Shown here piece by piece: positions 11,274-57,383 of a stretch of 64,000 nucleotides of DNA; the stretch's first letter is position 1; every line of letters begins with the position of its first letter. Where the stretch lies: contig JAUCBJ010007486.1 in the NCBI GenBank assembly GCA_032718475.1, positions 1 through 64,000 of the forward strand, given 5' to 3'. Position numbers and translations under genes: made by a program. This DNA comes from Nemertoderma westbladi (Eukaryota; Animalia; Xenacoelomorpha). The notes beneath the pieces are model-generated. The model did no database searches, had not been told where the DNA came from, and was given only the letters and a program-made list of their open reading frames with translations.

Positions 11274-11880
11274 GTAAGCAAATATATAATTAAATGTGCA
11301 AAGAAAAATGACGGGAATGCGGGGATAGTAAATATTAGGTAATATTTGTGTGCAGTCACGTATGAAGGCACCACCAAGCAAAATTAAGTTAAGGTATAAA
11401 TGACTAACTATATTATAATGTATGACTGACTACATTATAATCCTTCTTCAGGCAAATAGAATATATACAATATAACCGTTAACACGTTAGATATAACTGA
11501 AAGTTTTAAATTTCCCGCCAATTGTAAAGGTTATAAACGTTTGGTTATGGTAAAGAAGGTGTGAGTTGGTAAATGTAAACTAGGTGTGAGGTACAGTAGG
11601 TGCACGCTGGTAAATATTAAAACATTGCAAAGGAGGTAACAATGAAATAATGAAAGAAATATAATTATGCTATGCCTTAATAGTAATATTATGAATATGA
11701 ATATGTTTGAATATATGTGTGAATTAGCGTTCCTGGCATGACCCTACCAGTAATTTATTTATTTATATTACGACTGCATCAGTGTCTCGTGTCTTTGTTA
11801 CATGTACGTACAGTGCAATATAATTTTTATTTTTTTTAATTTTATTTGTTGTTTGTAAAGTAGGCCTACGGTTGAATATT

Positions 11881-16514: not shown

Positions 16515-18373
16515 TGTTGTGTCCTCTACGGTAGGGACTACCCTACAGCCTACAAATCTACTAATACGAAGCTATAGAATATCTCTATCCGTAAAGTCCA
16601 GTAGTATACCGCTTACCAGATCCTAGTAACGATGTATCTTACTGTAAGACTCTAGTAATGAAACGGGCTCGTACAGTATCTGACAACAAATCCCAGTCCA
16701 GGATATCTAAACAAACAGATACAATACACAAACTACTACTGGCGAGGAGCAGAGCCTGGTGTCTATTCTAGGTACGTGGGCGGGTCTAATGCCTACGTAC
16801 TAGACAAAAGGATACCTGTCCTCTAACCGGTATGGCAGATGTACAGTTACAGTAACAGACCAAACTCACGGGAAAACAATCCCCGCGCAGCGAATCCTAA
16901 CTATCGCTGACAGTCTTAAATACAGTAACTTGCCGCGGTGTGATTTATATGGTTTATATACGAGCTAGGTGGGTTACAGCCCTAGCGTAACAATACTGAT
17001 CCCCCTGTCTGAATCAGCCTAAAAGAGGTCGTGCCTAAATGTAACGATAACTGATCTCCCTGCACGAAATCAGTCTAAAAGGTCAGGCCTAAATGTAACA
17101 ATACTGCTGCGCAGAAAACAACAGTTTAATAACGAAAATGAAATGCTCCCTCTTGCCGTAACTAAATATCTGATCCTAATTTACAAATACAGATAATTTC
17201 TGCCTAAAAGTAATCTAAAGTGCGCTATAACTAGTAGAAACTCTAAGGGTAAATATGTTTTAGGGCGTGTGTGTGTGTGGGTGTGTTACAAATAAAACAA
17301 TTTTGGTGTTATCTTTTCACTAGGTTTTAGTAATTCTCTGACCGAAATAATACCGTGCACTAGCTACTAAAATAAGCTAGTCGCGTTTTGTAGAACTTTA
17401 TACTCACAAATGACGTCAAAGCTCTCTCCTTCCTATCCACAACTCAACTGGACAACCACGGTGTTAGTAACTACACCCGTGATCGGCACAAATACCAGAT
17501 TCTGGTTGTAAGATAAGAAATAGGGATTAATTGCTACCGTACGTTAGCTGATCTGGTATACAAATTTGATTCTAGAACTTTGTTGCCGCAGTAGTTAGCA
17601 GCAATACCTATCAGTACATGGCAAGGCGCGGTAGGATATTAATAAAACCTCCCTAGGCCAAGCGGTGTGCCGGTAGCAGAAATGTTCCTTGCCTGATCAA
17701 ATAACCAACTTCAGGCAGGGGGGGGGGGGGGGGGGGTACTAATGTATGCTCTACAAAGCGAACCGGTACCAAACGGTCAGTACTGCGAATTACTAAATTA
17801 TGGAACATATGCTGTCTGTACCTAATATGTACTCGCGTACTGATGGACGGCAATAATTCGCTTCTACCTGTGAGGTATACAGGTAACCCAGGGGTTCGCA
17901 GGACTGACAAAGGGGGTTCTGCCTAAAATATAGTTATTTGATCCTAAATTTGCGGCGTCCCAGGACGACGTCACGCTTACCCTGATCTATAGGTCTTACG
18001 GCGGGCAAGGGCGTCAAACAAGTCTTACCTTCCTCATAAAGCGGGCGCTGCATGGCATGTGGAACATTTCGAAGGGCGAAGGGGGTGTGCGGTCCAAGTT
18101 AATGTGGGCGCTAGCGTGTTGTGGACATCCTTTCCCTGCGTTGCTGACGGCCTAACGGTCTAGGCGGTCATCTTCCCGATGTTTGGCTGTCCCAAAGTTG
18201 GACCAAAGAAAAACATGTTCAGGAGTTTGCAGTGTATTTACAGTTTAGCAAAGATTTATCAAACAGATTTAGAAATAGTTTCAACAAGAAACAAATAACT
18301 AAGCAAGAAGCAAAGTGAAGTGATAAGTCAAGTGGATACTAATAGTGAAGAGTGATAACCGAAGGCAAACCAG

Positions 18374-18516
18374 CCCTTTATATACTAAATCTGGGACATA
18401 GAATTTACTAGAACCTCCTAGAGTATTCCATGGCCTCACATTGGAGCAATAAGATATTCCATGCCTTATGATTGGCCTAACTCATCGTTCGATACGTTGT
18501 ACGCACCTCATTGGCT
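18374..18516 (-). promoter_or_regulatory. Candidate U3 Pol II promoter of LTR A (CCAAT boxes and TATA)
   Basis: Minus strand has three CCAAT boxes (plus ATTGG at ~18440, 18471, 18510) followed by TATATAAA at ~18377-18384. Confidence 0.55.
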
Positions 18517-18564
18517 TACCAATTTGTACCAAATGAAAATAAATTGCCCCAAAATACAAATTTC

Positions 18565-18631
18565 CCGACTAAGATTCGAACTCGTAACCTATGTAATGCA
18601 ACCAACGCCTTAACCATCTGACCACTACGCC
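18565..18631 (-). ncRNA. Degenerate tRNA-like Pol III unit inside LTR A (second copy ~50504-50569)
   Basis: Minus strand GGCGTAGTGGTCAGATGGTTAAGGCG (A box, Ser/Leu-like D arm)...GAGTTCGAATC (B box), with TTTT about 10-15 nt downstream; cloverleaf incomplete. Confidence 0.55.
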
Positions 18632-19194
18632 ACGAGAGTAACTAGGGGTTTTATGTATACAAATATGAATAGGCATATTACATTACTGTAACTTAATCAA
18701 AGTGCGTCGGATTTTCGAAAGTTTTTTACGTTATACTACAAATGCTATTCTATAGTGAAATAATTCATCACCGCTCCATGAAAACAGTAAGTAAGACTGT
18801 TTTCACCAATCGAAATACGAAAACTATTTACAAATACTTCTAAGTCTACTGGTAGGGCCTAAAATATAAAACAATCACTATCTAATTATTGCATACTTAA
18901 TATTGCAGGTACAGCGTAAATACAATCCATCATACATACAAATACAAATTTACAAATCAACTTTAGTGCATAAAATACAAAAAGGCTTTCGGTTATCAAG
19001 ATAAACAAATTAAACAAATTAGATCAAACAAATTAGAACAAATCAAACAAATAATTTCAATCTTTCAATAAATCTTTATATATTGTAAATATACATAATT
19101 AACTTCCACCAAATTAAATCAGTTCAAATATAAAATAAACACAAGGCGCTAAAATCCCTTAAATAAGTATTAAAGTGTCCACCTGACGATCTAA

Positions 19195-20489: not shown

Positions 20490-21141
20490 GGGTGGAGATT
20501 TGTAGTCTCCTGTCTCGTTTCTAGTCTCCTCAAGGAGCACGAGACGTTGTACAGGTCTGTCTACGGTACGACCGTCGATAGTCCTTACAGTAACTGTTCT
20601 TATTACACCAGATGTAGGGTGCGTGGTCAAAATGACTCCCAGTCAGCCAAAACCATCTTTTCAGATTGGCTTCAGCCAATAAAACATGGTCACCACGTCT
20701 TAAACATCGGGTATTAAGATACCAAGAGGTTCTGGTCGAAATAGAGGGCAAATAATCTTTCTGCCATATTTCCCAGAATTTATTTGCAAGCAATTGAGTG
20801 ATTTTCCAAGCTTTGTTGCCGTATCCGTCGCTATTAACGGGTACCGAAATGGGCAACAATGTCGTCGGCGCCTGCATAAGCAGGTGCGCTGGTGTCAAGG
20901 CAAACTGTGCGTCGTTATCGTCTGGGATCAAAGCGATCGGTCTAGTGTTCAAAATCGCTTCGATTTCTATTAACAACGTCGTCAGTTGGTCGTCTGTCAA
21001 TATGTGTTGCGTCGGTACGACTTTAGCCATAGCTGTTTTTATTGAGTCAATCAGCCTTTCCCAAACGCCGCCTCTCCACGGACTGTCTGGAGTATTGAAA
21101 TACCAAACAATTCGGTGAGGACGTAGTTCCTCGGTAATCTG
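20490..21141 (-). pseudogene. Element A integrase, C-terminal part
   Basis: QITEEL...WYFNTPDSPWRGGVWERLI...EIEAILNTRP...LTPAHLL...FWEIW..DYL continues in frame from 33243 once element B is removed. Confidence 0.9.
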
Positions 21142-22409
21142 TGTACGCGCTTTTGAAGACCTTTAGCAGTTTAACCTGCCAAAATTTATATGTCTTTTGG
21201 TTTATAAATCGACTCTAGAAGATGACAATATTTAATACCAATAAACACAACATTAGCAGAAGCCAGCCTAGTGCGCGTCCATTCACCCGCTGGATAATCC
21301 CGGGAGACTGGATTCTGTCGGCTTAGATTATTATTGCAGTGAAGCTTACGGTATTGTATTATTCGATTGATCGTTAATAATTAATTTCTGACTAATATTA
21401 TTCACTTTCGGGAAATATTAACAGTTCCTTTAGGACGTGGCGCTCTATCTAAGTAAACAGAGATATGACTTATACTAATCACAACGGTAAGTCGGTAAGG
21501 CTTATGATTCACGTATGAGGCGCATTCTTTAGGAAATGCTTAGTTATCAGCCACAATCATGCACACTACCGGTAACACACAATACTGCTCACTAATTTGC
21601 CGACCGTCAATGAATTTTATCATATATAAAGAGAATAGCAACGGACTCATGTAGGGCTTATCAAATAGCATTAAATTCAATACACACCACAATAATATAA
21701 GTCGCAATCGCTATATATATAACCCGCCTCTCTAACCTGTAGTGTATCAAGAAAATTGGGAAATTTGGGTTCTTTATAAATGTTCTCCAAATAATATTCA
21801 ATCCACTGATATAAGATATGACAACAGTAAAAACATTAAGACGGTAGGTTAAGATATGATATGAACAGATATGTACAGCGATATGCACTGATATGGACCG
21901 ATAACAGTCATACGCTCTATAATTTAAGCCTACTAATGTTTCTTCTAAATTATGAAAAGAATTAACTCTAGAGCCGGTGTTTCTGGCTTAGACAGCAATA
22001 ACAACAAAGTATCAGTAAAAACAGTAAGACTGAACACTCTCCTTATAATCGACCGAAAAGCTACACGTCGACAGGAAAAATCGCTCTGATTGGCTCAAGC
22101 CAAACAAAGAACCATGCGTCCAATGGCTGTTTCCATGTCAGCAACCAGCTGTTAGATGTCGTAATATGAATCATCACGGCTAAGCTGTGAAAGGTATTTG
22201 GTGCATTGTAGGTTTTTTGCCTTACCATGTCTGCCAAAACACGTATATAGTAGAATGACTTTTATGTCCGTTAAAACACCTATAACGGTACCTTGCGGGC
22301 GAGGGGAATATTTATACAGTTAGAGAACCTTTTAGAGTATTCCAGCGCCTGGGGGGGAAACTGGATTGCGAAGCAAAGGGGCCAGTTATATCCCACAGAA
22401 GCTTTTACA
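21142..22409 (-). repeat. 3' LTR of element B
   Basis: Direct repeat of 32002-33242; PPT-like GGGAGCGG on the minus strand at 22410-22417. Confidence 0.95.
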
Positions 22410-26214: not shown

Positions 26215-26235
26215 TCCTCAAACCTCAAACCAATC

Positions 26236-31600: not shown

Positions 31601-31990
31601 ACAACAATCCGACAACAGTCTGGCCTACAGTTATCTGAACAATCTGAGCAGACTTACACGTCTTCAGCTCAATATTAACTTACTAGGAAATAAAACCGAC
31701 AGAAATAGGTAAAATCTCAATAAAAACCAGGGCTGCAGTCCCTGATTAAATACTAAGACCTACCGGTATACAATAATCAAAATCGAATAATACTAATGTA
31801 CTTATACTGGAAGTACCGGTTAGGACAGTTGGGCCTACAGGCCTACAGAAGTACCGGTTCTGGCAGTTGGACCTACGGACCTACAGCAGTACCGGTTCTG
31901 GCAGTTGGGCCTACTGACCTACAGAAGTACCGGTTCAGGTTTACCGGTCGATCGGTACTTTCAACTTTATTGCTTACTGCAATAAAGTCA

Positions 31991-32001
31991 ATGACTGTTA
32001 T
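31991..32001 (-). promoter_or_regulatory. PBS-position sequence of element B, complementary to its own LTR
   Basis: Minus-strand ATAACAGTCAT abuts the 5' LTR; its reverse complement lies in the LTR at 32735-32745 and 21901-21911. Confidence 0.7.
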
Positions 32002-33242
32002 TGTACGCGCTTTTGAAGACCTTTAGCAGTTTAACCTGCCAAAATTTATATGTCTTTTGGTTTATAAATCGACTCTTGAAGATGACAATATTTAATACCA
32101 ATAAACACAACATTAGCAGAAGCCAGCCTAGTGCGCGTCCATTCACCCGCTGGATAATCCCGGGAGACTGGATTCTGTCGGCTTAGATTATTATTGCAGT
32201 GAAGCTTACGGTATTGTATTATTCGATTGATCGTTAATAATTAATTTCTGACTAATATTATTCACTTTCGGGAAATATTAACAGTTCCTTTAGGACGTGG
32301 CGCTCTATCTAAGTAAACAGAGATATGACTTATACTAATCACAACGGTAAGTCGGTAAGGCTTATGATTCACGTATGAGGCGCATTCTTTAGGAAATGCT
32401 TAGTTATCAGCCACAATACTGCTCACTAATTTGCCGACCGTCAATGAATTTTATCATATATAAAGAGAATAGCAACGGACTCATGTAGGGCTTATCAAAT
32501 AGCATTAAATTCAATACACACCACAATAATATAAGTCGCAATCGCTATATATATAACCCGCCTCTCTAACCTGTAGTGTATCAAGAAAATTGGGAAATTT
32601 GGGTTCTTTATAAATGTTCTCCAAATAATATTCAATCCACTGATATAAGATATGACAACAGTAAAAACATTAAGACGGTAGGTTAAGATATGATATGAAC
32701 AGATATGTACAGCGATATGCACTGATATGGACCGATAACAGTCATACGCTCTATAATTTAAGCCTACTAATGTTTCTTCTAAAGTATGAAAAGAATTAAC
32801 TCTAGAGCCGGTGTTTCTGGCTTAGACAGCAATAACAACAAAGTATCAGTAAAAACAGTAAGACTGAACACTCTCCTTATAATCGACCGAAAAGCTACAC
32901 GTCGACAGGAAAAATCGCTCTGATTGGCTCAAGCCAAACAAAGAACCATGCGTCCAATGGCTGTTTCCATGTCAGCAACCAGCTGTTAGATGTCGTAATA
33001 TGAATCATCACGGCTAAGCTGTGAAAGGTATTTGGTACATTATAGGTTTTTTGCCTTACCATGTCCGCCAAAACACGTATATAGTAGAATGACTTTTATG
33101 TCCGTTAAAACACCTATAACGGTACCTTGCGGGCGAGGGGAATATTTATACAGTTAGAGAACCTTTTAGAGTATTCCAGCGCCTGGGGGGAAACTGGATT
33201 GCGAAGCAAAGGGGCCAGTTATATCCCACAGAAGCTTTTACA
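32002..33242 (-). repeat. 5' LTR of element B
   Basis: Direct repeat of 21142-22409. Confidence 0.95.
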
Positions 33243-36200
33243 ATCTGGTTTTGGTCCAACTTTCTCAAAGCTCTGGTTATATCGTTCCGTGCACCCACAA
33301 AGTTTGTCCCTTGGTCGCAATAAATGGATTTGACCAATCCACGTCTAGCGATAAATCGCCGTAAGGCTAGGATAAAGGCATTGGTGGTCAAATCTGTCAC
33401 ACGCTCTATATGGACAGCTCTGCTGGCCATGCAAGTGAAGATCAATCCCCAACGTTTTACCTGTACCCTTCCGCGTTTTGCGATTATGGGTCCAAAACAG
33501 TCTATCCCTGTCTCAGTGAAAGGGGGTCTAAATGCCTGTAATCTCGCTAGTGGTAGTTCACTCATTTCTTGGTGTCCTATCCTCGCGTGCACCTTCTTAC
33601 AAATCATACAGTTCCGTGTTACCGAACTCAGTGCCTTACTAGGTCTAATCAGTACAATCCTCGATCGTAAGTGTGATAGACAGTGGTGTCTACCCACGTG
33701 TTTGAGTTGTACATGTGCGTCCAGTATCATAGCGCGCTGTAATTCATGGTGTTGCGGTATGATGATAGGATACCTAAAGTCTAGTGCAAAGTCGATGTTT
33801 TGGAGTCTGGACTTGTGACAAAGTAAGCCCCGGTAAATAATCGGACTCCAACTCAAAATCGGTGAAGACTTAATCTGTTTACCTTGGTTGATCGCTGTGA
33901 ACTCTCGTGTGAAATATCGCAATTGATAATGTCTAATGATATCAACTTCGCAATGACCAATTTCCTTTAAGGTAAGTCTTCTAGGAAAGTCGCGTTTGCC
34001 TCTGGCATATTGTCTCAAACGTTTGAGCCATGCTAACTTGCGGCACGCGTCAGTCCATGATCTAGTTAGGTTTACTATCCGGTCAACGTAAGTGTTAGTG
34101 ACGTCATCAGGTAAGGTATAGTCGTATTGTGGATACTTGTCTGGACTTGGTAGGCCCACGGGCCTTCCGGTGGGTTTGTCTGAGTCCTCAAGTACGTCAA
34201 TCTTTACGGTCTTACCTTTACCGTCCGCTCCTAGTGTGTCGACTGGCAGTAACGGTTTCAACTCTACAGTGTCAGTGTGTTCCTGTGAGCCTGTAAGCTT
34301 CCTAACCTTAGTCACACGTTTACCTGTAGGTGGTAAGTCAAGTACCTTCTTTGAGCGGAGTGTGATTGCTGTGGCCACACCTTTGTCGTCCAAAGAAGTC
34401 AAATCCGGTAAGTCTCTAAATTTCCGCTCCAATGGGTCTTCTAGTGGAGTGTCTAGTAGACAGTCTGGTGAAGCGTCCGGTGAACAGTCTGGTGAGACGT
34501 CTGGTGAGACATAGCGCGGAACTTCCAGCGAAATGTCCTGTCGTCGGTCCCAAGGTCTGTCTGGCGTAACTTCTATCAGAAAGTCTGGTCCAAAGTCTGG
34601 TCTAAAGTCTGGTGGACAGTCTGTCGAGATGTCTGGTGGAAAGTCTGGTGAGACGTCTGGTAGACATTCTGTCGAGAGTTCCATCAAACAATCTGGCGAA
34701 CAATCCGGAGAACAATCTGGTGTCACTTCTGGTGAATAATCTGGCGAGTAATCTGGTGAACAATCCGGCGAAATGTCTGGTGAAATCTCCCGCGGAACAT
34801 CCGGTGAAAGATTCGTACAAGCGTCTGGTCGAGTGTCTGGTGAGATGTCTGGCGTAATGTCAGGTCTGGCGTCCAGGTCATCAGATTTCATCCGTCCTTG
34901 TTTCCTCTTGACCTTGGCGTTGGCTTTCGCTTTGGACTTGACAACCTTGTCGATTTTTATCTCGGCACCCTCTGGTATGGTGTTGGTTGTCGCGTCGAAT
35001 AACAGTGGCTATTCATCTGATGGTCGCTGTAGGAAATCGGGTCCTCTAAACCAAAAGGATTTATTGTCCGGTTTACAAAAGACAAGCGGTTGCATCCCCC
35101 GTGACGCGATGTCAGCTGGGTTCAGCTTCCCTGGACCGTGACGCCAATCTTGTTTGAGCGACCGGTCTAATATTTCAGCCCGTCTGTTGGCTACGAAAGT
35201 CTTGAACTCAAATGCTTCGTTGTTTATGTACCAAAGTACCAACGTCGCATCCGTCCAATATGTGACCTTCAAGTTAGCCTCCAGCTCGCGTTGAACTAGA
35301 CTGACAATATCAGTGGATATCGTCCCGGCTTGCAGCTCCCCACGAGGTACAGTCATATACTTCAACGGCATTGTTCTAGCCCTAGAAGTAACGAGAGACA
35401 CATCGTAGCTGTCCGATGTCACTTGTCGTCTAAGGTACAAAGTAACCCCCAATCCATCCTTGCTAGCGTCACTAAAGCTGTGAAGCTCTAAATCGGCTGG
35501 AAAGGTGGTTTGCAAAGGAAAGTATACCCTCGGTATGGTATAGTCTTGTAGGAACATCAGTTGGGCTTCCCAGTCCCTCCATCGCTCAGCTAACTTTTCT
35601 GGGATGGGATCGTCCCATTCCAGTCCGGCTTGCCAAATGCTGCGGAGTATGATCCTAGCATGTAGGATCACTGGACTAATGAAACACAATGGGTCATACA
35701 ATCGACTCATGGTCGATAAGCAAGTCCTCTTAGTGAGAGGTCTAGTCTGGTCGTTGGACCTTACACGTACCCTAAAATTGTCGGTGTTAGGGTCCCAACT
35801 AAGTCCTAATACTTTGGTCGTCGGCAGAGGTTCTAGGTCTAAGTCTAAATCACCTCCACTGCGATCCGTCGGGTCAAATGAGTTCACCAGTTCGGGTTCG
35901 TTGGAAGCGAACTTCGTCAGGTGGAATCCGCCCTCAGCGAGACAATCCTGGAGTTGGTGTGCTACGGTTGTAGCGCGCTCCAAGGTGTCACAACTCTTGA
36001 GGCCGTCATCCACGTAGAAATCTCGTTCCACTGTCCGAACTACTTCTGGATCAAATTGGTCTCGTCTGTCCAATGCGGTCTGCTTTAAGGCGTACATGGT
36101 GCAGTTGGGGCTGTCCCTGGCTCCAAATACTCTTACCTGCATTTGGTAAGTTTCTGGCGGAAGTTCTAAGTTTCCGTCCGGATACCAAAGAAACCTCAAG

Positions 36201-37180
36201 CTGTCCCTGTCCCGCTCCAAAGCCTTAACCTGGTGAAACATGGCCTCTACGTCACAGGTGAAAGCCACTTTGCGTTGTCTAAAACGCATTAGGACTCCCA
36301 TGAGGTAATTGTTCATATTCGGCCCGTCCATCAGTTCGCTGTTCATAGACATCCCTTGGTAAAGCGCAGCGCAGTCGTTGACTACACGCACCTTGCCAGG
36401 TTTGTCCGGGTGTCGAACAAAATGATGTGGCAGGTAATATGTCTGGTCTGTGGTTACCTCGGGATTTAACATCCTAATGGCGTATCCCTTTTGGAGATAC
36501 GTCTGAAGTTGTGCATTGTATTGCATATGGGCCGTCTCGTCTCGCAACAATCACTGCCTTATTGATTTGAGTCGCCTCAAAGCAAGCGGGTAATTGTTAA
36601 CGAGTTTAGGTTGTCCATTGCGCCACAACATACCAACCTCATAGTGGCCATTCGCGGTCTGGCGAATGGTATCTCTCATAATATTTAATGACCGTTTTTC
36701 CTGTTCTGACATAGCGGTCTCGTAACTACCGGGTTCTGCTGAGTCCTGTTCCAACCATTGAATGGTCCGTTCAGTCAGCAGTCGGTCTAGCGCTGCTTGC
36801 ACTGCGCCCTGGTCCTCGTCCACGTCTTCGTCCGCTGCGGTGGCTAGTGTCAATGCGTCTGGTAGGCTCGCAAGCCTTCCGGTGTCACTAGTCGGCGTCG
36901 AATCGTCGTGCGGCGGTTTGACAACTTCTTGATCTATCGGTAGGCTCGCAAGCCTTCCAAGATCAACGACCGGTGTCGAAGCCTGGTGGGTGGGGTCAAT
37001 GACCTTTGGATTTTTCGGTAGGCTCGCAAGCCTTCCAAAATCCTCGTTCATCGAGTCATCCACAGCAACAACCCTTTGGTCTTCGGTAGTCAATACAACC
37101 TGGTTTACTGCAAGTAGTTGTAAGTCAGAGGTCCGTGTGGTCGTGTCCAGATCAGTTACGTCAGTATCGGTGGCGTCTGC
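33243..37180 (-). pseudogene. Element A pol: RT, RNase H and integrase N-terminus/core, with stops
   Basis: YYLPHH...KVRVVNDCAA...CDVEAMFHQV...FGARDSP...FYVDD; HSFSDAS...VPRGELQA...WTDA...NPADIASRG; H-H-C-C (DAHVQLKH...CMICK), TGIDCFGP, IYCDQGTNFVGA. Confidence 0.95.
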
Positions 37181-37181
37181 G

Positions 37182-40100
37182 TTAGCGACGCAAGTCTGTC
37201 GTAGTGCCGTCCGTACAATTGGACCACAGGGAGTGTGAAGGAGAGTTATCTATCGTAGTAGTCAATAAACTACATGTACTCAAAACATCGTCCTCCTGGT
37301 CACTTACCTCTAGTGAACGTATTGGTGCTCTAGTATACCAACCTATGGGAGTTCTACATGCGTAGGGGTTGCCCGCTGTAATAACAGATGGGCGTGTCTC
37401 CCATACCTGATGTAAGTTAAACTGGTCTGTCCCAATTAACATCGCAATGGAACGATAATTAACAGGACATTCCGGTATTCCAAGGTGTCGGAAATACTTA
37501 CGATCTTCCGGTGATTGCTCTGGCACAGGGCCGAGCAAGTTACTAAAGTCCTTCGTAGCTGCAAAGGTCAAATTTCTTACCGGAAGTAATGAGCGCTCCT
37601 CCTTGCTGTGTTCCGCTTTGGAAAGAAGAGTGTCTAAGGTTAGTTTTACTCTTGTCACAGGGATCGCTCTCTTACCATGCATGCTGCTTACAGTATACTG
37701 AGCAGTCTTACCTTGACTCATGTCCGTAACCACGTCGGCTACTTGTTCGTCGACATAACTATGCGATGACGCAGAGTCTAGGATAGCGTATATACGCTTG
37801 CTCCCTCGGGTTCCGGTAATCTTTATAGGAACCACGCTAAACCCTTTCAATTGGTTCTGTGTGAGGAGCGTTACCGATGGTTGTTCCTCACCCGCATGCA
37901 CGTAGAAAGTATCGTCTTCCTCCTCGTCCTCGTCCGATGATCCTGACTGATCCATACAGTCCGCGTAAAACGTACGGATCTCGCGCGGCGCACGCTCCTT
38001 ATATAATGCGTCGCATCTAGCCGCTTTATCTGGATGCTCTCGTCGAAAGCGTCTGGTCGGAGTATGACTAGTAGTGTGAAGTAACGCGTCATGGTTACGT
38101 CCACACAGAGGACATGTATCGTCGCTCGGGCAATCCTTCCGGACGTGTCCTGGCTTCGTACATCTCCAGCAAGAATCTAAAGATCGGATTTGGAGTCTCC
38201 TCTCCTCGATTCCCAACTCTTTAAAGGCGCGACATCCACGAAGTTTATGTCCGCTATGGTTTCTGCCGTTCCGCTCGCAGTATGAGCATCCCACAAAGTC
38301 CGCCGGCAACTGTTGTCGTGGCTGCGTGGTGCCGATAGGCGTCAGAACTTTAGAAGTCTCAGTAGGGGTGGCGTAGGTAACGGCTTTCGCGTTCGTCGGA
38401 AACGGTTTAGTCCGATTCGGCGCAGAAATAGCTATCCCTTCTGCCGCGATATGATGATCAGTATAGTTCGATCGGGTCTCGATCACGGCCTCCCGCGAAA
38501 TCAGTTGATAGACGTCAGTGAGTTTTAATAGCCCGCCGGCCTCTTCACGCTGGTACTCGATGCGACGCCATTCTCGTCGGAGTCGATGATGAAGTCGACC
38601 GATTATCCTGATGAGAACTGTCGGTGCGTTAGCGTACTCGAGTTGTCCAATGGACCGTAAAGTCCCTATAGCGTTTTTATTTCGTCCGCGAGTCGTAGAA
38701 GATCGATCGGTTTCGAAATGCTGCCTCCTCTACAGAGGTCTTCGATAATGGATTTAGCCATGGCGACGTTACCTCCGTAAATCGAATATAAACGGTCGTA
38801 CGCCAACTCAAAGGCATCGGGAACACCAATGAAGGTTTCCGCTAATCGTTTCGGCTCACCAGACAGGACTAGGAGCAAGTAATTAAACTTCTCCGTCGAG
38901 GTGAAAGCACACTTAGCGATCTGGGACTCTACGTAGTCTACCAGTGTGCGCCAGTGTTTCGCGTTGCCAGAGAACTTCGGCGGTTGCTGTGCCGGTAATC
39001 CGTGTCTAGCCGCGAATTTCGCAATCTCGCTAACCAAATCCAACTGTCCACGTCCCTGTTCGGTGGCGTCGTCCAGTCGCTCCCTTCCGCGCGTTGTTCG
39101 TCGGTAGGAATTATTAACGGGATCTTCTTCTCGATGGTTCGGAGTCTGTCTAGTCTCCTGTTCTCTCCTTGGTGATCGATGTTGTCTAGGTTGTTCTAAC
39201 TCCACGCTGGTTCGTGATCGATCCGACGGTTGTGTTTCGAGTCGTTCTTCGATTTGAGCTAGTCGGTCCGCCATCTCGGTGAACTGTTTGGCGTTAATCG
39301 CTTCCGCTGGTTGCAACGTGGGTTTCTGCAAAGGTGTTTCTCGTGGTGGATTGTCGATGTATGGGTTCGTTGATCATTCCTCCCGTTTGTAATCAGCCGC
39401 CGCTCCAGTACGGAATATTTCCCATTCCGTCGACTCCGAATCGCTGGATGAATCGCTGTCATCCGGATAAGGTGGTTGGCGGGTTCGCGTACGGCGTATT
39501 ACTCTTGGTCGAGTTCGTTGTGGTCTGGGATCTACGGCTCTCCGTTGTTCGGTAGGATCGCAAGCCTTCCACGAAGTCGTAGGTCTCGTTGAACTCGGTT
39601 CGATCCTGTGGGTATTACCCACATCCGTCGTCCTTCGTTGTTCGGTAGGCACGCAAGCCTTCCACGAAGTCGTAGGTCTCGATAAACACTGTGTGAGGGG
39701 TCTAGTAAAAACATCGGAGTTAAGTGCTACTGTAGGTTTATAAATGACTGGGTTCGCGCCGCACGTTACAGGTTTAACTTGTAATGGTTTACTCACCTGT
39801 TTTACTGTCATAAACGCAGGTTCGTCTCTCTCTACTAGTAAACTACGGCTTACAGTAGGTGGACTACTTATCTTACCTGCGAGAATCGGCGATGAAGTCG
39901 CTCGTGGCTGCGGAATTGATTCCGACATAACAAACCTATTCGCTTGCACGGGTGATATTTCCTTCGGTTTTGCAACCATAACCGGTGTTACTGGAGTCAT
40001 GGGTTTGAGCATAGGAATAACTTGGGGAAAACGTTTACAGTAATCCTCGACGAACGCCTCTCCTCGATCTATCGCTCCCACACTTCCTTCCTCGATTCGC

Positions 40101-41279
40101 TTCTGAATTCCGCGATATCGAGTCTCCATGCGATCCAGGGCAGACAAGTCGTGTCCAGCTCGAGACCTTATAGATCTATCTCTCGCGTCGAGTTCGAGGT
40201 CCTCTTGCGCGTTCGCCGCCTCGCGCGATCTATGATTTAGTTTGAACTGGAGCTGCATCTCCCTTTCGCGTCGATCTGCTATCTGTTGTTGCGCTGCTCA
40301 TTCCGCTTCCTGTATAGCTAAACGAGCGTTTATTTGTCGCGCCTCCAACTTGGCACGAGCGTCGGATGCTGCTTTCTTCCATGCAAACTCAGCTGCGTTT
40401 ACTGCCGCAACTCGTGCTAACTCATCGGCTGCCGCCGCCCGTCGTGCTAACTCGTCGGCTGCTGCCGCTGCGGCCGCTTCTCGCGCTAAGTCCTCTTCCA
40501 GTCTCCGCATTTCTGAAGCTTCAAATTCGGCTTGAGCCTGGAGTTTCGTAAAGTTTGCTACATCGTCTCTACGCTGTCTTTCTCCTTCAGCCGCAATCTG
40601 TGCCAACTGCCGTTGCGTTTCTTCCTCAGTGACTTGTTGTCGGCGTGCGACCTCCTGTTGTTGTCGAGTAATTACAGACGCTGTCCTACTAACGTCGCCA
40701 ACGTCGCTCCGTACACTAACGAACGATCTATCCAGTGGTGGAATTTGGTAGGCTCGCGAGCCTTCCGTAGTAAGAACTTCCGTCGTCCCTCGCGGTTCGA
40801 CTTCCGGTTCTTCGATCGGTACGCCGCATCTACGAAGAAAATTGGTGAGCGTCTCTAACCTCCCGTCCAGGCAGTAGAGTTCTTCTTCCTCTTCGGGTTG
40901 TAACAACGCGTCCGAAACTGACTCACCTAGCAGTTAGTCGAACTGCTCCTGTTGAGCCAATCTTATCACCGACTTAAACTGGATAAGGCTTTCTCTCGCA
41001 CTTACCAACTTGTCTATTATCTTTACCTGAGTAAAGTTATCGCCACGCAACTCTGCAAGTTCGTATAAACCTTTAAGTTTATCTACGGAGGCATGTACCC
41101 TCTACCTTCTATCCTTACCTGTAAGGTGTAGAACTCGTATCTCGACATCGGGGTGGTTAACTCGCGTAAAACGCGAAAACCTTCTCCGAGGTTCCGAGTA
41201 ATCTGGGCCATGTGTCCTCCTATACTCCTAATAACGTTCTCCTGGCTTCCAGTCGAACTTACCATGTCCGGTTCCCGCG
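37182..41279 (-). pseudogene. Element A gag-protease, several stops; N-terminus lies at 47310-47511 beyond the LINE
   Basis: KFSGNAKHW...EKFNYL; CSYC..H...C / CWRCTKPGHVRKDC / CPLCGRNHDALLH; protease AILDSAS; frame restored across the LINE (...FLTVP-REPDMVSS...). Confidence 0.9.
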
Positions 41280-43263: not shown

Positions 43264-43535
43264 AATACTTTTTATACCGGTGGTTTGGGCTATATATATA
43301 TATTAGAACCTTATTTAGGACATCAATATGTAATTTGTGTATATAATGCGTATTACGTGTAAAACATTTAATTCTGGTCCACGTTTAGTGTATCATATAT
43401 GACATGTGTTATACCGGATATATACTATAATAGATTATAGGTAGATACCGGTATATACCACATTGGTTGCTGGGGAATGTAATTTGAATTTTAGCGGCCA
43501 CTTAAGATAAATATTGCAACATAACACATTGTATA

Positions 43536-46500
43536 ATGCAACAAATTGCGTCAGACACTAATTCTAGTGGTAGTGCGACGACGGCTGTTGGCATTGGGTG
43601 CGGTCTTTGTTTTTCAACTTTTCAAAATTCAGATTTAATTATCAACTGCAATCTTTGTAAACAGAAATATCACCGACAATGTGGTTCATTCTTTGAGACT
43701 ATCGATTTTTCAGACACTACCATTTTATCACACTGGTGCAATTTTTGTTATCATTATCTATTTCCTTTTGGTAGTGTTGAAAATGACGATCTCGATATAT
43801 TTTCTAATGAAACGGGTGAAGTTAATTGTGAAGACATACAGGCTGCTGGCAACATCTTTAGTGATATTAATCCTGACGATAACTTGAATTGCAATTTGAT
43901 TCTAGGGGATTACTTTAATGAAACAATATTTGATAACCAATTTTACGGAAATGACAGCAGATCGAATTTTTCATTAATGCATTTAAATTGCAGGAGCTTA
44001 AACGCAAATATATGTGCAATAACAAATTTTTTGGAATCTATGAATGCCAATTTCGACATTCTGACTTTTTCTGAAACGTTTTTAACTAAAGATAGTGTAT
44101 TAAATGAAGTTGCCGTTCGTGGTTTTAAGGAACCTTACTGTGATTTTCGAAAATGGGGTAAGAGACTAGCCAGAGGAGGCACGGCTATTTATGCGCGCTC
44201 CGATTTAGAAACATCAATACGACCCGACCTTCATTTCAACGGCCCTGAAAATTGCTGGATAGAAGTGGCGAGGCCTCACCCTAATAAGCCCTTAATAATT
44301 GGATGTATTTATCGCTCAGACGAAATAGAATTTGATAGTTTTAATAAAGGTTTTAATGATACACTTTCCAAATTGGCCTCAACAAATTACGACGTTGTTA
44401 TAACCGGTGATTATAATATTGATGTTTCTAAACCAAATAAGCCTCGTACTAGTGAATATATTAATACAATATCTTCTAACGGCTTCACTCAAACTATAAA
44501 CCAACATACTCGTATCACTCCCTATTCTAGATCTACTATAGACCACATCCTTTGTAACATACACTCATCTATTTGCTCACCTGGTGTATTTTTAACAGAA
44601 ACTGGTACTACCGACCACCTTCCTACTTTCATGGTTTTAACTGATTATTCTATGTTTTTTCTTCCTCCTGATACAAAGCGCACTTACGATTACTCGCAAT
44701 TTAATAAAGATAGGTTTACTAATGATGTACGAAACTTTTCCTTTAGATATTCAGCTAATAACACCCCTGACAAACTTAAACTAGAAAGTTTTTATGATGA
44801 CTTCACAAATATTTGCAAGGATAACCTTCCCTCCGTGGTTGTACAAAAACGAGATGTTCCAAAGAAATCTTGGCTCACAAAATCGCTAATTTTAGGAATA
44901 AAAAAGAAAAACTTATTATACGCAATATATTCTAAATCACCCACAACTGAAAATCATAATCGTTATAAATTATACAGAAATAAATTAACCACACTACTTA
45001 GAGCAGCTGAAAAACAATACTACAACTCCGAATTCAATAAAAATTCTAATAATATGCGTAAGACTTGGAAAACATTAAACTCTTTATTACACCGTTCTGC
45101 AAAAACATCAACACCAAAGAGATTAAACGTGGACAAAGACGGGGAAATTATTTCTCTCTCCAATCCAGCTGATATAGCCAACGCCTTTAACAATTTCTTT
45201 TCCAACATTGGTCCTCAACTTGCTTCACAATTTGCTTCAAGTTCTCGTTGTCCTACTCGCCATGTAAGACATTCCAAATCCAATTCCTTCGGACTTTCAG
45301 AAACATCTCCCGCTGAAATTCATTACATCATTTTACAATTAGATGAGAAGTGCGCCTCCAATGACGATTTTCCGATTTCTTTAGTAAAGCTTGCGGCCCC
45401 ATTTATATCTACTCATTTATGTAGCTTGATTAATCTCAGTTTACGACTAGGGCATTTTCCTGATTGTCTTAAGTTAGCAAAGGTCATTCCAGCTTATAAG
45501 GGTGGTAACCCATTTCTTCCTACAAACTACCGTCCAATCTCCCTCCTCCCTGTTTTCCATAAAATTTTCGAAACAGTTTTATACAACCAGCTTATAGCAT
45601 ACCTTAATAAATTCAATGTAATTTCGCGTAATCAATTCGGCTTCCGGAAAAAATTCACCACATCATATGCAGTAATAAATATAGTGGAGTCAATTCGAAA
45701 TGCTCTCGATAATCATCAATCCTCTTGTTTAGTATATATAGACCTCCGTAAGGCATTTGATACTCTTGACCACTCCATCCTTATAAAGAAACTTCAGTCA
45801 TATGGTATACGCGGTACCCCTCTGTCGATTTTCTCAGATTACTTATCCAATCGTAAACAGTTTGTTTCATTAGGTGTTACGTCATCTTTAGTTAATTCAA
45901 TCACCTGTGGTATCCCGCAAGGTTCGGTACTAGGCCCAATTCTTTTTTTACTTTATATAAATGATCTCCCAAATGCAACCTCTCTCATTGCCACTCTGTT
46001 TGCAGACGATACATCTCTCATGTTCCACGATAGTAACATAACCAGATTAACTAATACTATAAGTACCGAAAGTAATTTAATTAATGATTGGCTGATAGAT
46101 AATAAATTAACCTTAAACACCGATAAAACAGAATACTCCATATTTACATTCTCGCAAAATTTCAACTTACCAAGCACAACAATTAATATCAACAACAAAC
46201 CCATCAGATACACGTCCGCTGCAAAATACTTAGGCATAATTATAGATGATAAACTCACATTTAAGGCGCACATTAAATACATACTTAAAAAAATTTCTAA
46301 AACAGGTGGACTGTTCTATAAACTTCGACATATACTTTCTAGAGAGTTACTCCGCATGCTTTTTAATACATTAATTTATCCTTACATTTTCTATGGCTTG
46401 ATTGTTTGGGGCGGCACTTACAAGTCAAACACAGATCCTTTGAAAATAAAAATCAATAAGATATTGCGTTGTATCACATTTAATCATTCTCAATCCTCAT

Positions 46501-46826
46501 CCTATCCCATCTACCAACAATTACGTATCCTACCTCTAGATCTCCTCTATAAATACCAGGTGCTAATACTCATGTTTGAAGTCCATAATAATCCATCTCA
46601 CCCTCTAGCTTACCTCTTTACTAAAGCCTCTTCGGTTCACTCATATAATACTCGCTCTGCTTCCTCTGGCCTGTATCATTTACCTCCGGCTCGTTTGGAT
46701 GTTCGCCATCTTTCATTATCTATGCAAGGGCCACTTTTGTGGAACTCATTATCACAACTTATTAGGGACAGTCGAAACCTGGCGATATTTAAGAAAAAAT
46801 TAAAATACCACTTACTGCAGATATGA
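43536..46826 (+). CDS. LINE ORF2: PHD-like finger, APE endonuclease and reverse transcriptase (1096 aa, intact)
   Basis: CGLC...CNLCKQKYHRQC...CNFC; HLNCRSL, SET, GDYN, IDH, TDH; YRPISLL, QFGFR, DLRKAFD, GIPQGSVLGP, FADDT, KYLG. Confidence 0.95.
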   Translation: MQQIASDTNSSGSATTAVGIGCGLCFSTFQNSDLIINCNLCKQKYHRQCGSFFETIDFSDTTILSHWCNFCYHYLFPFGSVENDDLDIFSNETGEVNCEDIQAAGNIFSDINPDDNLNCNLILGDYFNETIFDNQFYGNDSRSNFSLMHLNCRSLNANICAITNFLESMNANFDILTFSETFLTKDSVLNEVAVRGFKEPYCDFRKWGKRLARGGTAIYARSDLETSIRPDLHFNGPENCWIEVARPHPNKPLIIGCIYRSDEIEFDSFNKGFNDTLSKLASTNYDVVITGDYNIDVSKPNKPRTSEYINTISSNGFTQTINQHTRITPYSRSTIDHILCNIHSSICSPGVFLTETGTTDHLPTFMVLTDYSMFFLPPDTKRTYDYSQFNKDRFTNDVRNFSFRYSANNTPDKLKLESFYDDFTNICKDNLPSVVVQKRDVPKKSWLTKSLILGIKKKNLLYAIYSKSPTTENHNRYKLYRNKLTTLLRAAEKQYYNSEFNKNSNNMRKTWKTLNSLLHRSAKTSTPKRLNVDKDGEIISLSNPADIANAFNNFFSNIGPQLASQFASSSRCPTRHVRHSKSNSFGLSETSPAEIHYIILQLDEKCASNDDFPISLVKLAAPFISTHLCSLINLSLRLGHFPDCLKLAKVIPAYKGGNPFLPTNYRPISLLPVFHKIFETVLYNQLIAYLNKFNVISRNQFGFRKKFTTSYAVINIVESIRNALDNHQSSCLVYIDLRKAFDTLDHSILIKKLQSYGIRGTPLSIFSDYLSNRKQFVSLGVTSSLVNSITCGIPQGSVLGPILFLLYINDLPNATSLIATLFADDTSLMFHDSNITRLTNTISTESNLINDWLIDNKLTLNTDKTEYSIFTFSQNFNLPSTTININNKPIRYTSAAKYLGIIIDDKLTFKAHIKYILKKISKTGGLFYKLRHILSRELLRMLFNTLIYPYIFYGLIVWGGTYKSNTDPLKIKINKILRCITFNHSQSSSYPIYQQLRILPLDLLYKYQVLILMFEVHNNPSHPLAYLFTKASSVHSYNTRSASSGLYHLPPARLDVRHLSLSMQGPLLWNSLSQLIRDSRNLAIFKKKLKYHLLQI

Positions 46827-48453
46827 TTAAACCATTTCAATTTCAATAGCATACATATATTTTTTCATTATCCTTTTTTCATATACATTCTCCCCAATTG
46901 GTTATCAACAACTTGCGTTATATAAATATATTTTCCTTTACATATTTTGCGTCATATATATAGTTTCATACTTTTTTTCTTTACATATACATTCTCCCCT
47001 ATTGGTTATCATCAGTTTGCTATGCAGTCTTGTACATACCACAAATTTATTTTTTTACATGCAGGAAAAAACAAATATTTATAAAATTCCGACAGCAGTC
47101 AACCGCACCGCACCCACCTATCTGTATAATTAAATTTACTTTAAACATTCTAGAACTCTCCAGATGCAGGGGTGAGCTAAAACTACACTAGCTATGCTAT
47201 AGCGGAAGCTCACACCAATCAACCCAGCAATCAATTTTGTAGGGTATTGTGCGTTATTTTTATTTTATAATTTTGGAGGAAATAAATAAATAAGAATAAA
47301 AAATAAGCGGGACGGTAAGGAAATCTTCGATTCTGCCGTCGCCATGCGTTGCGGCTTCCGGTATTTCCGTTCGGGGTACCGGCGATGCACGCGGTGTGAC
47401 ATCGGTGGAATCTCGGGTTCTCCTTCTCGGTTCGTCTACTGTCGATCTGTCCGGGTCGCACGAGTCATAGTCGGTAGGTGGGTATCGAGTCGAATGGGGT
47501 GTGTCACTCATGTCTTATTATATACGTCAAGTACGGGTAATAAAATGTCAAAGTATCTGAGTGTTGAAATGTCAAACTTACCTTGATATATATAGTATAT
47601 ATATACCCTAACTGGTACAAATAAATCAACAAGTCAGAAATGTCGAAATGTCAAAATGTCAAAATGTCAAACTTACCTTGATATATATATATATCATATA
47701 TATACCCTAACCGGTACAAATAAAACTAACAAAGTATATAATAAAATAAGTAATAATCTAGCCTACCGGCTAAATTTGTACGAATAAATGAGATAACGGT
47801 ATACGTTACCAAAATGTAGATCAACAAGTACAAATAATAGGCAAAACAGCAACGTCTAATGGGAAAATAAGTACCAACAACACTACTATTAGACAGTGAA
47901 ACCCACAAATTGTGAGTACTACTGTGCTTTCTTAAGTTTGAACGACACGAGTCGTAAAACTTACGTTCCTTTGATCTTCCAGTCGTGCAAATTCCCAAAT
48001 ACAAACCGGACGTGGGTCGTTCCGTTTTTCGGCGGCGTGGACGAATTTATTGTCTCCCAAACTTTGCGAAAAGCGGTCTAATCCTCGAAGCGGTCCAGAA
48101 ATGAGTCCTTGAGTCCTGAAAGGTCGAAGGTGAGAGTTTTACTTCTACACTACAAAAAATCTTCCTAAGTACCGATACAACTTGGTCTTTAAACCCTATG
48201 TACCTTTTCAAGTACCGAAAAGTAACACCGCATACACACGGCGTAAAACAAGATGCTACAAACTAACTATTAGCTAGTCAAATATTAAATACGAAACTAC
48301 TAGCTACCCTAAAGGCCTACTGAAGCAGGGGACGTTTTACAAATTACTAAATTTACTAACCTTAAATTTTAAATATCTCCTACTTACAATAGCTAACAGT
48401 ATGTGAGAGACCTCACGGTTGGGATATATATTTCCTACTTTCGTAAGAATAAA

Positions 48454-48463
48454 TATACCTCAC
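48454..48463 (-). promoter_or_regulatory. PBS-position sequence of element A, complementary to its own LTR
   Basis: Minus-strand GTGAGGTATA abuts the 5' LTR; its reverse complement lies in the LTR at 49803-49812 and 17870-17879. Confidence 0.7.
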
Positions 48464-50708
48464 TGTTGTGTCCTCTACGGTAGGGACTACCCTACAGCCT
48501 ACAAATCTACTAATACGAAGCTATAGAATATCTCTATCCGTAAAGTCCAGTAGTATACCGCTTACCAGATCCTAGTAACAATGTATCTTACTGTAAGACT
48601 CTAGTAATGAAACGGGCTCGTACAGTATCTGACAACAAATCCCAGTCCAGGATATCTAAACAAACAGATACAATACACAAACTACTACTGGCGAGGAGCA
48701 GAGCCTGGTGTCTATTCTAGGTACGTGGGCGGGTCTATTGCCTACGTACTAGACAAAAGGATACCTGTCCTCTAACCGGTATGGCAGATGTACAGTTACA
48801 GTAACAAACCAAACTCACGGGAAAACAATCCCCGCGCAGCGAATCCTAACTATCGCTGACAGTCCTAAATACAGTAACTTGCCGCGGTGTGATTTATATG
48901 GTTTATATACGAACTAGGTGGGTTACAGCCCTAGCGTAACAATACTGATCCCCCTGTCTGAATCAGCCTAAAAGAGGTCGTGCCTAAATGTAACGATAAC
49001 TGATCTCCCTGCACGAAATCAGTCTAAAAGGTCAGGCCTAAATGTAACAATACTGCTGCGCAGAAAACAACAGTTTAATAACGAAAATGAAATGCTCCCT
49101 CTTGCCGTAACTAAATATCTGATCCTAATTTACAAATACAGATAATTTCTGCCTAAAAGTAATCTAAAGTGCGCTATAACTAGTAGAAACTCTAAGGGTA
49201 AACGTGTTAGAAAAGTGTTACAAATAAAACAATTTTGGTGTTATCTTTTCACTAGGTTTTAGTAATTCTCTGACCGAAATAACACCGTGTGCTAGCTACT
49301 AAAATAAGCTAGTCGCGTTTTGTAGAACTTTATACTCACAAATGAAGTGAAAGCTCTCTCCTTCCTATCCACAACTCAACTGGGCAACCACGGTGTTAGT
49401 AACTACACCCGTGATCGGCACAAATACCAGATTCTGGTTGTAAGATAAGAAATAGGGATTAATTGCTACTGTACGTTAGCTGATCTGGTATACAAATTTG
49501 ATTCTAGAACTTTGTTGCCGCGGTAGTTAGCAGCAATACCTATCAGTACGTGGCAAGGCGCGGTAGGATATTAATAAAACCTCCCTAGGCCAAGCGGTGT
49601 GCCGGTAGCAGAAATGTTCCTTGCCACATCAAATAACCAACTTCAGGCAGGGGGGGGGGGGGGGGGGGGTACTAATGTATGCTCTACAAAGCGAACCGGT
49701 ACCAAACGGTCAGTACTGCGAATTACTAAATTATGGAACATATGCTGTCTGTACCTAATATGTACTCGCGTACGGACGGACGGCAATAATTCGCTTCTAC
49801 CTGTGAGGTATACAGGTAACCCAGGGGTTCGCAGGACTGACAAAGGGGGTTCTGCCTAAAATATAGTTATTTGATCCTAAATTTGTGGCGTCCCAGGACG
49901 ACGTCACGCTTACCCTGATCTATAGGTCTTACGGCGGGCAAGGGCGTCAAACAAAGTCTTACCTTCCTCATAAAGCGGGTGCTGCATGGCATGTGGAACA
50001 TTTTGAAGGGCGAAGGGGGTGTGCGGTCCAAGTTAATGTGGGCGCTAGCGTGTTGTGGACATCCTTTCCCTGCATTGCTGACGGCCTAACGGTCTAGGCG
50101 GTCAACTTCCCGATGTTTGGCTGTCCCAAAGTTGGACCAAAGAAAAACATGTTCAGGAGTTTGCAGTGTATTTACAGTTTAGCAAAGATTTATCAAACAG
50201 ATTTACAAATAGTTTCAACAAGAAACAAATAACTAAGCAAGAAGCAAAGTGAAGTGATAAGTCAAGTGGATACTAATAGTGAAGAGTGATAACCGATGGC
50301 AAACCAGCCCTTTATATACTAAATCTGGGACATAGAATTTACTAGAACCTCCTAGAGTATTCCATGGCCTCACATTGGAGCAATAAGATATTCCATGCCT
50401 TATGATTGGCCTAACTCATCGTTCGATACGTTGTACGCACCTCATTGGCTTACTTACCAATTTGTACCAAATGAAAATAAATTGCCCCAAAATACAAATT
50501 TCCCGACTAAGATTCGAACTCGTAACCTATGTAATGCAACCAACGCCTTAACCATCTGACCACTATGCCACGAGAGTAACTAGGGGTTTTATGTATACAA
50601 ATATGAATAGGCATATTACATTACTGTAACTTAATCAAAGTGCGTCGGATTTTCGAAAGTTTTTTACGTTATACTACAAATGCTATTCTATAGTGAAATA
50701 ATTCATCA
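48464..50708 (-). repeat. 5' LTR of element A
   Basis: Direct repeat of 16515-18770, followed by TSD CCAGG. Confidence 0.95.
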
Positions 50709-50713
50709 CCAGG

Positions 50714-56206: not shown

Positions 56207-57383
56207 TGTTCGCGCTTTTAGACCTTTAGCAGTTTAACCCGCTAATTTTAGGTGTCTTCTAGTTAATAAATCGACTTTAGCCTATAACAAGTATTTGTTG
56301 CATATAAGATATAAAGTTACATTAGCCGAAGCCAGCCTATGCGCGACCATTCACCCACAGTTAAGGGAGACTGGATTCGGAGGCTCTGACCTTATTGCGG
56401 TGTAGACTTACTGTATTATTCGATTGCTCGTTAATATAATATCTCTGACAAATATTATTTACTTTCGGGAAATATTAACAGTTCCTTTAGGACGTGGCGC
56501 TCTAAGTATGTAAACAGAGTTATGACTTACACTAAACACAACGGGATGGCTAATGATTTTCGTATAAAGCGCATTCTTTAGGAAATGCTTTATCTGTCAC
56601 ACTCATGCACACTACCGCACACTGCTGCACACTGATCTGCCGACCTTCACCAAATTTGATCATATATAAGGAGAATAGCAACTGACACATGTAGGGATTA
56701 TGAAATAGCATTCAATTCACTCCAAAACCACTATAATGTAAGTCGCAGTTGCTACAGGTAACCGGTCTCTCTAACCTTCAGTATATCAAGAAGATTGGGG
56801 TTTTATGATTATTTATCGATATTCTCCAAATATAACAACATATCCATCAACTTATAACAATTAATAACCGACAGTAAATAGCAGTAAAATAATGCGGTGA
56901 AAGGTATGTATAGTATGCTATGAGCTGCGATAACAGTTATACGTTCCTATAATCAAAGCCTTCGAATGTTTGGCTTAAGTCTGAAACTCAGAATAATTCC
57001 AAAGCCGATGTTCTGGGGCTCAGGAAAAGGTAAACAAAGACCGTCATGCATTGCGCAATTTCCCATAGGCTTCTGTGCAAATAAAATGAAAATCGCTCTG
57101 ATTGGTCGAGTGAGCCGAACAAAGAGAGTTAAGAAAGCTCCACATCGACATCAAAATCAGCTGATAGATTTCGTAATCTAAACCACACTGTATTAAGAGT
57201 ATTTTGGCGTATTGCGGCATAAAATAGCTTGTTATGTCCGCTAAAGTACACATACAGAAAAATGGCTTTTTATGTCCGCTAAAACACCTACACAGTAAGA
57301 AAAACGGCTTTTTATGTCCGCTAAAACACCTACAGAGTACTTTGCGGGGGAAATGACTAGTTATATCCGCAAAAGCCTTTACA
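56207..57383 (-). repeat. 3' LTR of BEL element C, a diverged relative of LTR B
   Basis: TGTTCGCGCTTTT...GCCTTTACA with many blocks shared with LTR B; same PPT context (plus CCGCTCCCAGAAAATGGG). Confidence 0.85.

Follow-up and report, generated by a model that had tools for sequence, protein, structure and literature searches.

Self-complementary primer sites suggest tRNA-free, partly splice-made priming in a BEL/Pao retrotransposon lineage that includes an element of Nemertoderma westbladi

Background

BEL/Pao elements are a main LTR group of animals, and their replication is described as poorly understood and tRNA-primed (PMC8742986). The ICTV describes Belpaoviridae/Semotivirus as having LTRs of 0.2-1.2 kb and a primer site of 18 nt for tRNA-Arg or tRNA-Gly (PMC8742986). 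The main texts of a BEL/Pao survey (PMC3118150) and of the Sinbad paper (PMC554778), as distinct from their supplements, contain neither 'PBS' nor 'tRNA'.

The closest described systems are found outside BEL/Pao. Tf1/Tf2 of Schizosaccharomyces pombe, Tj1 and Tf1/sushi possess no tRNA site, and the 10-11 nt after their 5' LTR are complementary to the element's own LTR transcript; an RNase H cut has been proposed to free the primer of Tf1 and Tj1 (PMC7175516 and PMC4600332, in the parts covered). Plant Tcn1 chromoviruses and the TAR copia elements Houba and Osr-1 are predicted self-primers as well, again belonging to gypsy and copia and not to BEL/Pao. The rule behind this prediction, as given in the part of PMC6317226 covered, is a complement of at least 10 bp situated 0-5 bp from the LTR, and the same part makes no mention of a splice-made primer for Tcn1 or TAR. 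Primer sites without TGG are also known from copia, with half-tRNA priming, and from GalEa, with a conserved hairpin site. The open literature, covered mostly as titles and abstract openings and taken apart from Repbase, GyDB and the full ICTV report, yielded no account of self-priming or splice-made primers in BEL/Pao; PMC3601003, PMC8220671, PMC5443660 and PMC3286476 were compared too, likewise in part. Here we set a BEL/Pao element of Nemertoderma westbladi, element A, against these systems.

Methods

The window, i.e. the whole stretch of DNA analysed, comprises 64,000 nt of Nemertoderma westbladi (GCA_032718475.1, contig JAUCBJ010007486.1, positions 1-64,000, forward strand). Relatives were fetched by RT alignment, as the best 80 of at least 543 loci in metagenome contigs together with 24 loci in genome records (104 loci); the search of viral contigs gave no BEL/Pao loci and likewise no Gypsy loci to serve as tRNA-primed controls. 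The 24 loci from genome records (L081-L104) carry a BEL/Pao RT within bacterial or archaeal records and are most likely animal DNA contaminating the bins.

The fixed-end set consists of the 12 of 104 loci (11 families) whose LTR end is set by a second LTR copy, or of 14 elements when A and B are included. Dropped before counting were L094, L006, L014, L047 and L063 (families already represented), L045, L046 and L010, in which the repeat lies in coding sequence, L095, which belongs to another element, and all loci without a second copy fixing the LTR end. For L034, L048 and L064 the LTR ends were placed by eye and are less certain, the L064 copies being 77% alike; the LTRs of L034, L048, L064 and L071 end in TA, not CA. 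The RT tree was built from 82 RT pieces and midpoint-rooted, without outgroup or named references.

Results

Element A and its surroundings

Nested BEL/Pao elements occupy the minus strand of the window (Table 1), with element B inside the integrase of A and a LINE inside the leader of A. The domain order of A is of the PR-RT-RH-INT type of BEL/Pao (Pfam DUF1759, Peptidase_A17, Integrase_H2C2 below cut-off, and DUF5641), and TG...CA LTRs, a target duplication and a purine tract are all present. Its ORF also holds acidic motifs that we take to be of the RNase H type. Judged by these features, A is a defective BEL/Pao LTR retrotransposon. It shares with the ICTV description of BEL/Pao the DUF1759 gag, the Peptidase_A17 RT-RNase H, the integrase after RNase H, the LTRs, a 5-bp target duplication and the purine tract, but differs in having no tRNA site and an LTR of 2.2 kb instead of 0.2-1.2 kb. 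TGG is missing from the 5 nt that follow the LTR in both A and B, and the ICTV-type 18-nt tRNA site is thus absent from both, which is a departure from the described BEL/Pao priming mode and not from the protein-based family. The RT-RNase H of A is 40-47% identical to its best relatives; these homologues carry Peptidase_A17 and, where the source is named, come mostly from marine invertebrates and fish.

Table 1. Coordinates of features in the window
Feature	Position	Strand	Remarks
5' LTR, element A	48464..50708	-	2245 nt, TG...CA; 97.6% match to 16515-18770
3' LTR, element A	16515..18770	-	preceded by purine-rich tract ending GGAGCGG
Target duplication of A, CCAGG	16510-16514 and 50709-50713		5 bp; fixes LTR ends together with second LTR copy
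gag-pol of A	33146..40933	-	stops and frameshifts give several ORFs: DUF1759 gag, protease region, RT-RNase H, integrase start
RT-RNase H of A			Peptidase_A17, E 4e-40; YVDD at 36016
Integrase end of A	20530..21162	-	DUF5641; severed by insertion of B
Primer-binding position, A	48454..48463	-	adjoins LTR directly; no TGG
Candidate self-primer end, A 5' LTR	49803..49812	-	10-nt complement; G at 49813 gives G-U; 1339 nt before LTR end
Same 10-mer, A 3' LTR	17870..17879	-	
TATA-like box, LTR A	50312..50318	-	516 nt upstream of primer end; three CCAAT boxes above; putative promoter
Sole AATAAA/ATTAAA hexamer, LTR A	49074..49079	-	723 nt downstream of primer end
Stem-loop, A	48420..48459	-	just 3' of primer site and overlapping its distal half
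5' LTR, element B	32002..33242	-	nested; 1241 nt; target duplication ATCTG
3' LTR, element B	21142-22409	-	target duplication ATCTG
Primer-binding position, B	31991..32001	-	11 nt directly after LTR; no TGG
11-nt complement, B	32735..32745 (5' LTR); also 21901-21911	-	733 nt before LTR end
Equivalent LTR segment, element C (relative of B)	56930..56940	-	differs from B at 1 of 11 bases; C primer site outside window
LINE in leader of A	43506..46826	+	endonuclease and RT; outside priming system

Several other features were observed in the window. B contains a long gag-protease ORF followed immediately by a piece resembling the end of RNase H (25567-29781, -), most of its RT seemingly being deleted; the LTRs of B are nevertheless 99% identical, and B may have moved in trans. 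Both B and C have an extra ORF just before the 3' LTR (22488-23342 and 57436-58533, -), with two Cys/His knuckle-like motifs and no Pfam match, and C has a 596-aa ORF that is also without Pfam match (58242-60032, -). The LINE has an open frame of 1106 aa with a weak RING-like match at the N-terminus, and a clear target duplication was not found for it. Tandem repeats of 12 nt occur in frame in the pol of A (Pro/Asp-rich, 34428-34853), and repeats of 12 and 33 nt in the gag of B (28733-29400). An ORF with a fibrinogen C-terminal domain (10640-11293, +) is probably a host gene exon, while for a Gypsy-type RNase H fragment (62371-63102, +) no LTR pair was found within the window.

The primer site of element A

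Read on the element strand, the 5' LTR of A closes with ...ACAACA (last base 48464), with GTGAGGTATA directly after it (48463-48454). The reverse complement of GTGAGGTATA occurs exactly twice in the window, once per LTR. The initial annotation had reported this 10-nt complement, extended by one G-U pair and ending exactly at the LTR edge, and we confirm it in both LTRs and nowhere else in the window; base 11 forms the G-U pair and base 12 is a mismatch. The predicted duplex of the 10-mer with the primer site has an energy of -17.0 kcal/mol. The stem-loop next to the primer site has z -2.64 for 48420-48500 (z -2.2 in a second run). A donor-like CAG/GTAGAA lies 2 nt past the candidate primer end (49799-49802, -), where splicing would shorten the 1.3-kb loop; its counterpart was not found in B or C.

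The complement had also been placed largely in the loop of a small hairpin. A 7-bp stem whose loop holds 7 of the 10 bases is indeed predicted, but its stability is at chance level (z 0.25; 110 of 200 shuffles fold as well). A loop-presenting hairpin was rejected as a shared feature, since the number of paired bases among the last 10 of the primer varies between 0 and 9 in the 13 elements compared.

An exact 10-mer at offset 0 is obtained with 22 of 5000 dinucleotide-shuffled LTRs of A (0.0044), about twice the chance expectation of 2e-3 stated earlier, and the exact 11-mer of B at offset 0 with 5 of 5000 (p 0.001). Once offsets 0-5 are allowed, the match of A has p = 0.017, and one of 13 foreign primer sites, namely that of B, reaches 10 nt in the long LTR of A (offsets and splicing allowed). 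Because of the shuffle frequencies of 0.0044-0.017 and this foreign site, A alone is modest evidence for self-priming. The complements of both A and B fall within the self-primer rule as stated in the covered part of PMC6317226.

Elements A and B compared

The predicted duplex of B has an energy of -15.7 kcal/mol, and a TATA-like box is located 148 or 416 nt upstream of its primer segment. The sole strong donor and the best acceptor above the primer of B delimit a possible LTR intron of 281 nt (32778-33059, -) that ends 44 nt before the primer end. Immediately after the primer site of B is a near-perfect 13-bp hairpin (31960-31992, -), similar to the hairpin after that of A; a stem-loop after the primer site with z < -2 is found in A and B only and in none of 12 relatives.

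The two LTRs had been described as without visible similarity, and they are unalignable apart from a single 27-nt match (E 7e-4), the sole similarity between them. Since unalignable LTRs leave no column that covaries, 'full covariation' between A and B, as it was called, is an overstatement. Nor does A stand as the independent replicate of B that it had been taken for: their gag/protease regions are 24-28% identical. As related BEL/Pao elements, A and B are probably inherited copies of one trait and not independent origins, to judge from these protein identities.

Own and foreign primer sites among relatives

In the fixed-end set, the own primer site reaches at least 10 nt in the own LTR in 13 of 14 elements (A, B and 11 of 12 relatives; mean 11.4, complements of 10-15 nt), compared with 5 of 180 foreign primer site/LTR pairings (mean 6.3), one of the five being the site of B in the LTR of A. 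The exception, L090, has 8 exact bases, or 10 of 11 with one mismatch by eye. All matches begin within 0-5 nt of the LTR end. TGG occurs in the first 5 nt after the LTR in one of the 14, and a junction match of 14 nt is present at that site. A conserved LTR-complementary primer site, as initially proposed, is therefore well supported by relatives from other genomes and not by the comparison of A with B. Priming in copia and GalEa relies on half of a host tRNA or on an internal hairpin (PMC6317226 and PMC6934838, each in part), whereas the sites found here vary among families and match the own LTR.

A test for contiguous complements in 12 LTRs (the first 10 fixed-end relatives, A and B) gave a Fisher p of 7e-9, a combined value that overstates independence because the elements are related, the controls being shuffled LTRs and foreign pairings among these same related elements. 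Many of the contiguous matches were just 7-9 nt long and started right after a pyrimidine tract followed by AG.

A blind search of 37 further loci without LTR ends gave at least 10 nt in 14, and 11 of these begin 0-5 nt past an ACA, which the search had not required; singly, p is at most 0.05 in 7 of the 37, many contigs missing part of the LTR. Relaxed scans requiring an LTR-like end had top matches of at least 10 nt in 16 of 22 and 9 of 12 loci, but they have no null, include some surely chance matches and serve as leads only. The blind scan also revealed a contiguous complement of at least 25 nt after ACA in L059 (7075-7100), which is either a primer site or an unrelated inverted repeat.

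Complements formed by splicing

If any GT..AG intron is allowed, the matches lengthen to 11-15 nt in 8 of 12 fixed-end relatives and to 8 nt in L090, for the most part at consensus splice sites. The complement spans a predicted LTR intron in nine relatives and is contiguous in L034, L064, L089, A and B. Against shuffled LTRs, the spliced test gives p<=0.05 in 8 of 13. The donor chosen is GTAAGT or GTGAGT in five of the nine spliced cases, although any GT..AG was permitted, and the acceptor ranks first among all AG in three of the nine. For A and B themselves a splice-made primer was rejected, the best spliced match being 8 nt in A (p 0.94) and 10 nt at a non-consensus donor in B (p 0.06).

Closely related loci bear on these introns. 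In L008 a 168-nt intron was predicted from the complement alone, and precisely this intron is missing from L011, which is ~90% identical to L008; on this comparison L011, whether derived from DNA or RNA, marks the L008 junction as a true product of splicing. The sister families L082 and L083 have a homologous donor and near-identical flanks, but exon end and site are CAC and GTG in one and TAA and TTA in the other, i.e. two compensatory changes. The sister families L004 and L072 show one compensatory change, and L017, the sister of the spliced-type L036, has a contiguous complement in each of its two LTR copies.

In the RT tree, spliced types are found on both main branches and contiguous types are scattered, a distribution that fits an ancestral spliced state with repeated loss. 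A belongs to a clade (support 0.994) with the spliced-type L068 and L044; the primer site of L044 starts with GTGA, as does that of A, and most relatives' sites start with GT. On this placement A is a contiguous, rather weak member of a clade whose primer is mostly splice-made. Named BEL/Pao references (Sinbad, Suzu, Tas, Bel, Pao, Dan, Flow) are not among the homologue matches of A, and its relatives come mainly from marine animals.

Folding and polyA signals

Duplex energies range from -15.7 to -20.9 kcal/mol in relatives when spliced versus -5.0 to -16.2 kcal/mol unspliced, and the duplexes of A and B equal those of the spliced relatives. A helix probability of at least 0.73 is predicted for five of nine spliced leaders, none of nine unspliced leaders and both short contiguous ones (7 of 11 relatives in all). 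It is 0.00 in A and B, as in four of the nine spliced relatives. The distance from the segment to the LTR end is 1339 nt in A and 733 nt in B, as against 44-154 nt in 11 relatives; in A and B, each of the two pairing partners is partly covered by local hairpins. Because predicted folding favours no helix at such spacing, A and B would need Gag chaperoning, a further splice or a trans primer in order to pair; this is the main weakness in the case for A.

Of 13 LTRs, 12 have a single polyA hexamer, and in each of these it falls inside the segment or downstream of it. Relative to the segment end, the hexamer is at -8 to +93 nt in 10 of 11 relatives; the distance is 638 nt in B, and A has it still farther away (Table 1). 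The gap at the purine tract and the gap at the primer site are correlated (Spearman 0.65, p 0.017, n=13; 0.54, p 0.088 without A and B), but the equal-gap rule (symmetric end processing) was set after data inspection, and L034, L089, L026 and L051 disagree with it.

Discussion

Taken together, the sequences make it quite probable that A works like a Tf1-type self-primer with an internal primer, and that its lineage primes with its own RNA. A resembles Tf1 and its kin in the missing tRNA site and in the complement after the 5' LTR, but Tf1/sushi belongs to the Ty3/gypsy chromovirus lineage, while the domains of A are of BEL/Pao, a different superfamily. Moreover, the primer of Tf1 consists of the transcript's first 11 bases, whereas the TATA-like boxes well upstream of the complement suggest that the primer of A is probably internal.

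A segment of 10-15 nt inside the LTR transcript would anneal to the site that adjoins the 5' LTR, and a cut at the 3' end of the segment, presumably by the element's RNase H as in Tf1, would release it as the primer. As transcription would start upstream of the segment, given the TATA-like box, the primer would be an internal piece on a long 5' fragment; no precedent for an internal cut of this kind was found in the literature covered, part of it in excerpt. The two halves of the segment would, in most relatives, be joined when the host splices out an intron of the 5' LTR; A and B would represent contiguous variants, whose match does not depend on splicing. The strong-stop DNA would then span only the stretch from the cut to the LTR end before jumping to the RNA 3' end, so that a polyA site would be required downstream of the cut, and the hexamers are positioned as such a cut and jump would need. 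The intron could be recovered from the unspliced 3' LTR and would be lost if that copy were also spliced. For the cut, the extension and the unspliced 3' LTR, this scheme follows Tf1 and the logic of LTR replication.

It is unlikely that the pairing is real but regulatory, folding the 5' leader so as to hide the polyA signal or to mark spliced RNA for packaging, with priming by a tRNA fragment or a protein. AATAAA does lie inside the paired segment in L068/75 and L051, the hexamer follows at once in L082/L083, and the pairing is possible in the 5' LTR only. The hexamers of A and B are nonetheless distant, the match always begins within 0-5 nt of the LTR end, the position required of a primer, and the primer sites differ by family and each match the own LTR, which leaves no shared host primer. 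Less likely again is self-priming in trans, in which a short spliced transcript of the 5' LTR or of a solo LTR, ended at the LTR polyA site, trimmed and packaged, would prime the genomic RNA. The 3' end of such a transcript would still have to coincide exactly with the duplex edge, at a distance from where polyA cleavage is expected, and folding in cis already favours the helix in 7 of 11 relatives, even if the closeness of the hexamer to the segment end in 10 of 11 relatives speaks for it and the long loop that makes the helix of A and B improbable would be avoided. Least likely is that the clade self-primes while the 10-mer of A is a chance match, its real primer being lost, mutated or elsewhere: the 2245-nt LTR, the p of 0.017 with offsets, the one foreign site in 13 that reaches 10 nt, the helix probability of 0.00, the defective state of A and a comparison covering a single copy of A would all allow this, but the match stands at offset 0 (p 0.0044), the best spliced alternative has just 8 nt, B has the same geometry (p 0.001), and the site begins with GT like most relatives and with GTGA like L044 of the same clade.

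We thus retain self-priming by the element's own RNA as the preferred reading. A broader reading, towards which we lean with some reserve, is that a large, old BEL/Pao branch of marine animals builds its primer via the host spliceosome. The LTR intron would split the primer, only the spliced 5' RNA end would be able to prime, and the unspliced 3' LTR would transmit the intron; elements like A and B would be repeated escapes from the dependence on splicing, through intron loss or a primer that slid into one exon, and would prime across a loop of ~1 kb.

Conclusions

The self-priming model gives exact and cheap predictions, such as junction reads, RNA cut sites and strong-stop lengths. If it is true, such elements would be overlooked or wrongly labelled by annotation tools that require a tRNA site. 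Priming without a tRNA would then have one more origin, in a lineage that is neither Gypsy nor Copia, and with a primer that is internal and mostly splice-made, RNA processing would be tied to the start of reverse transcription.
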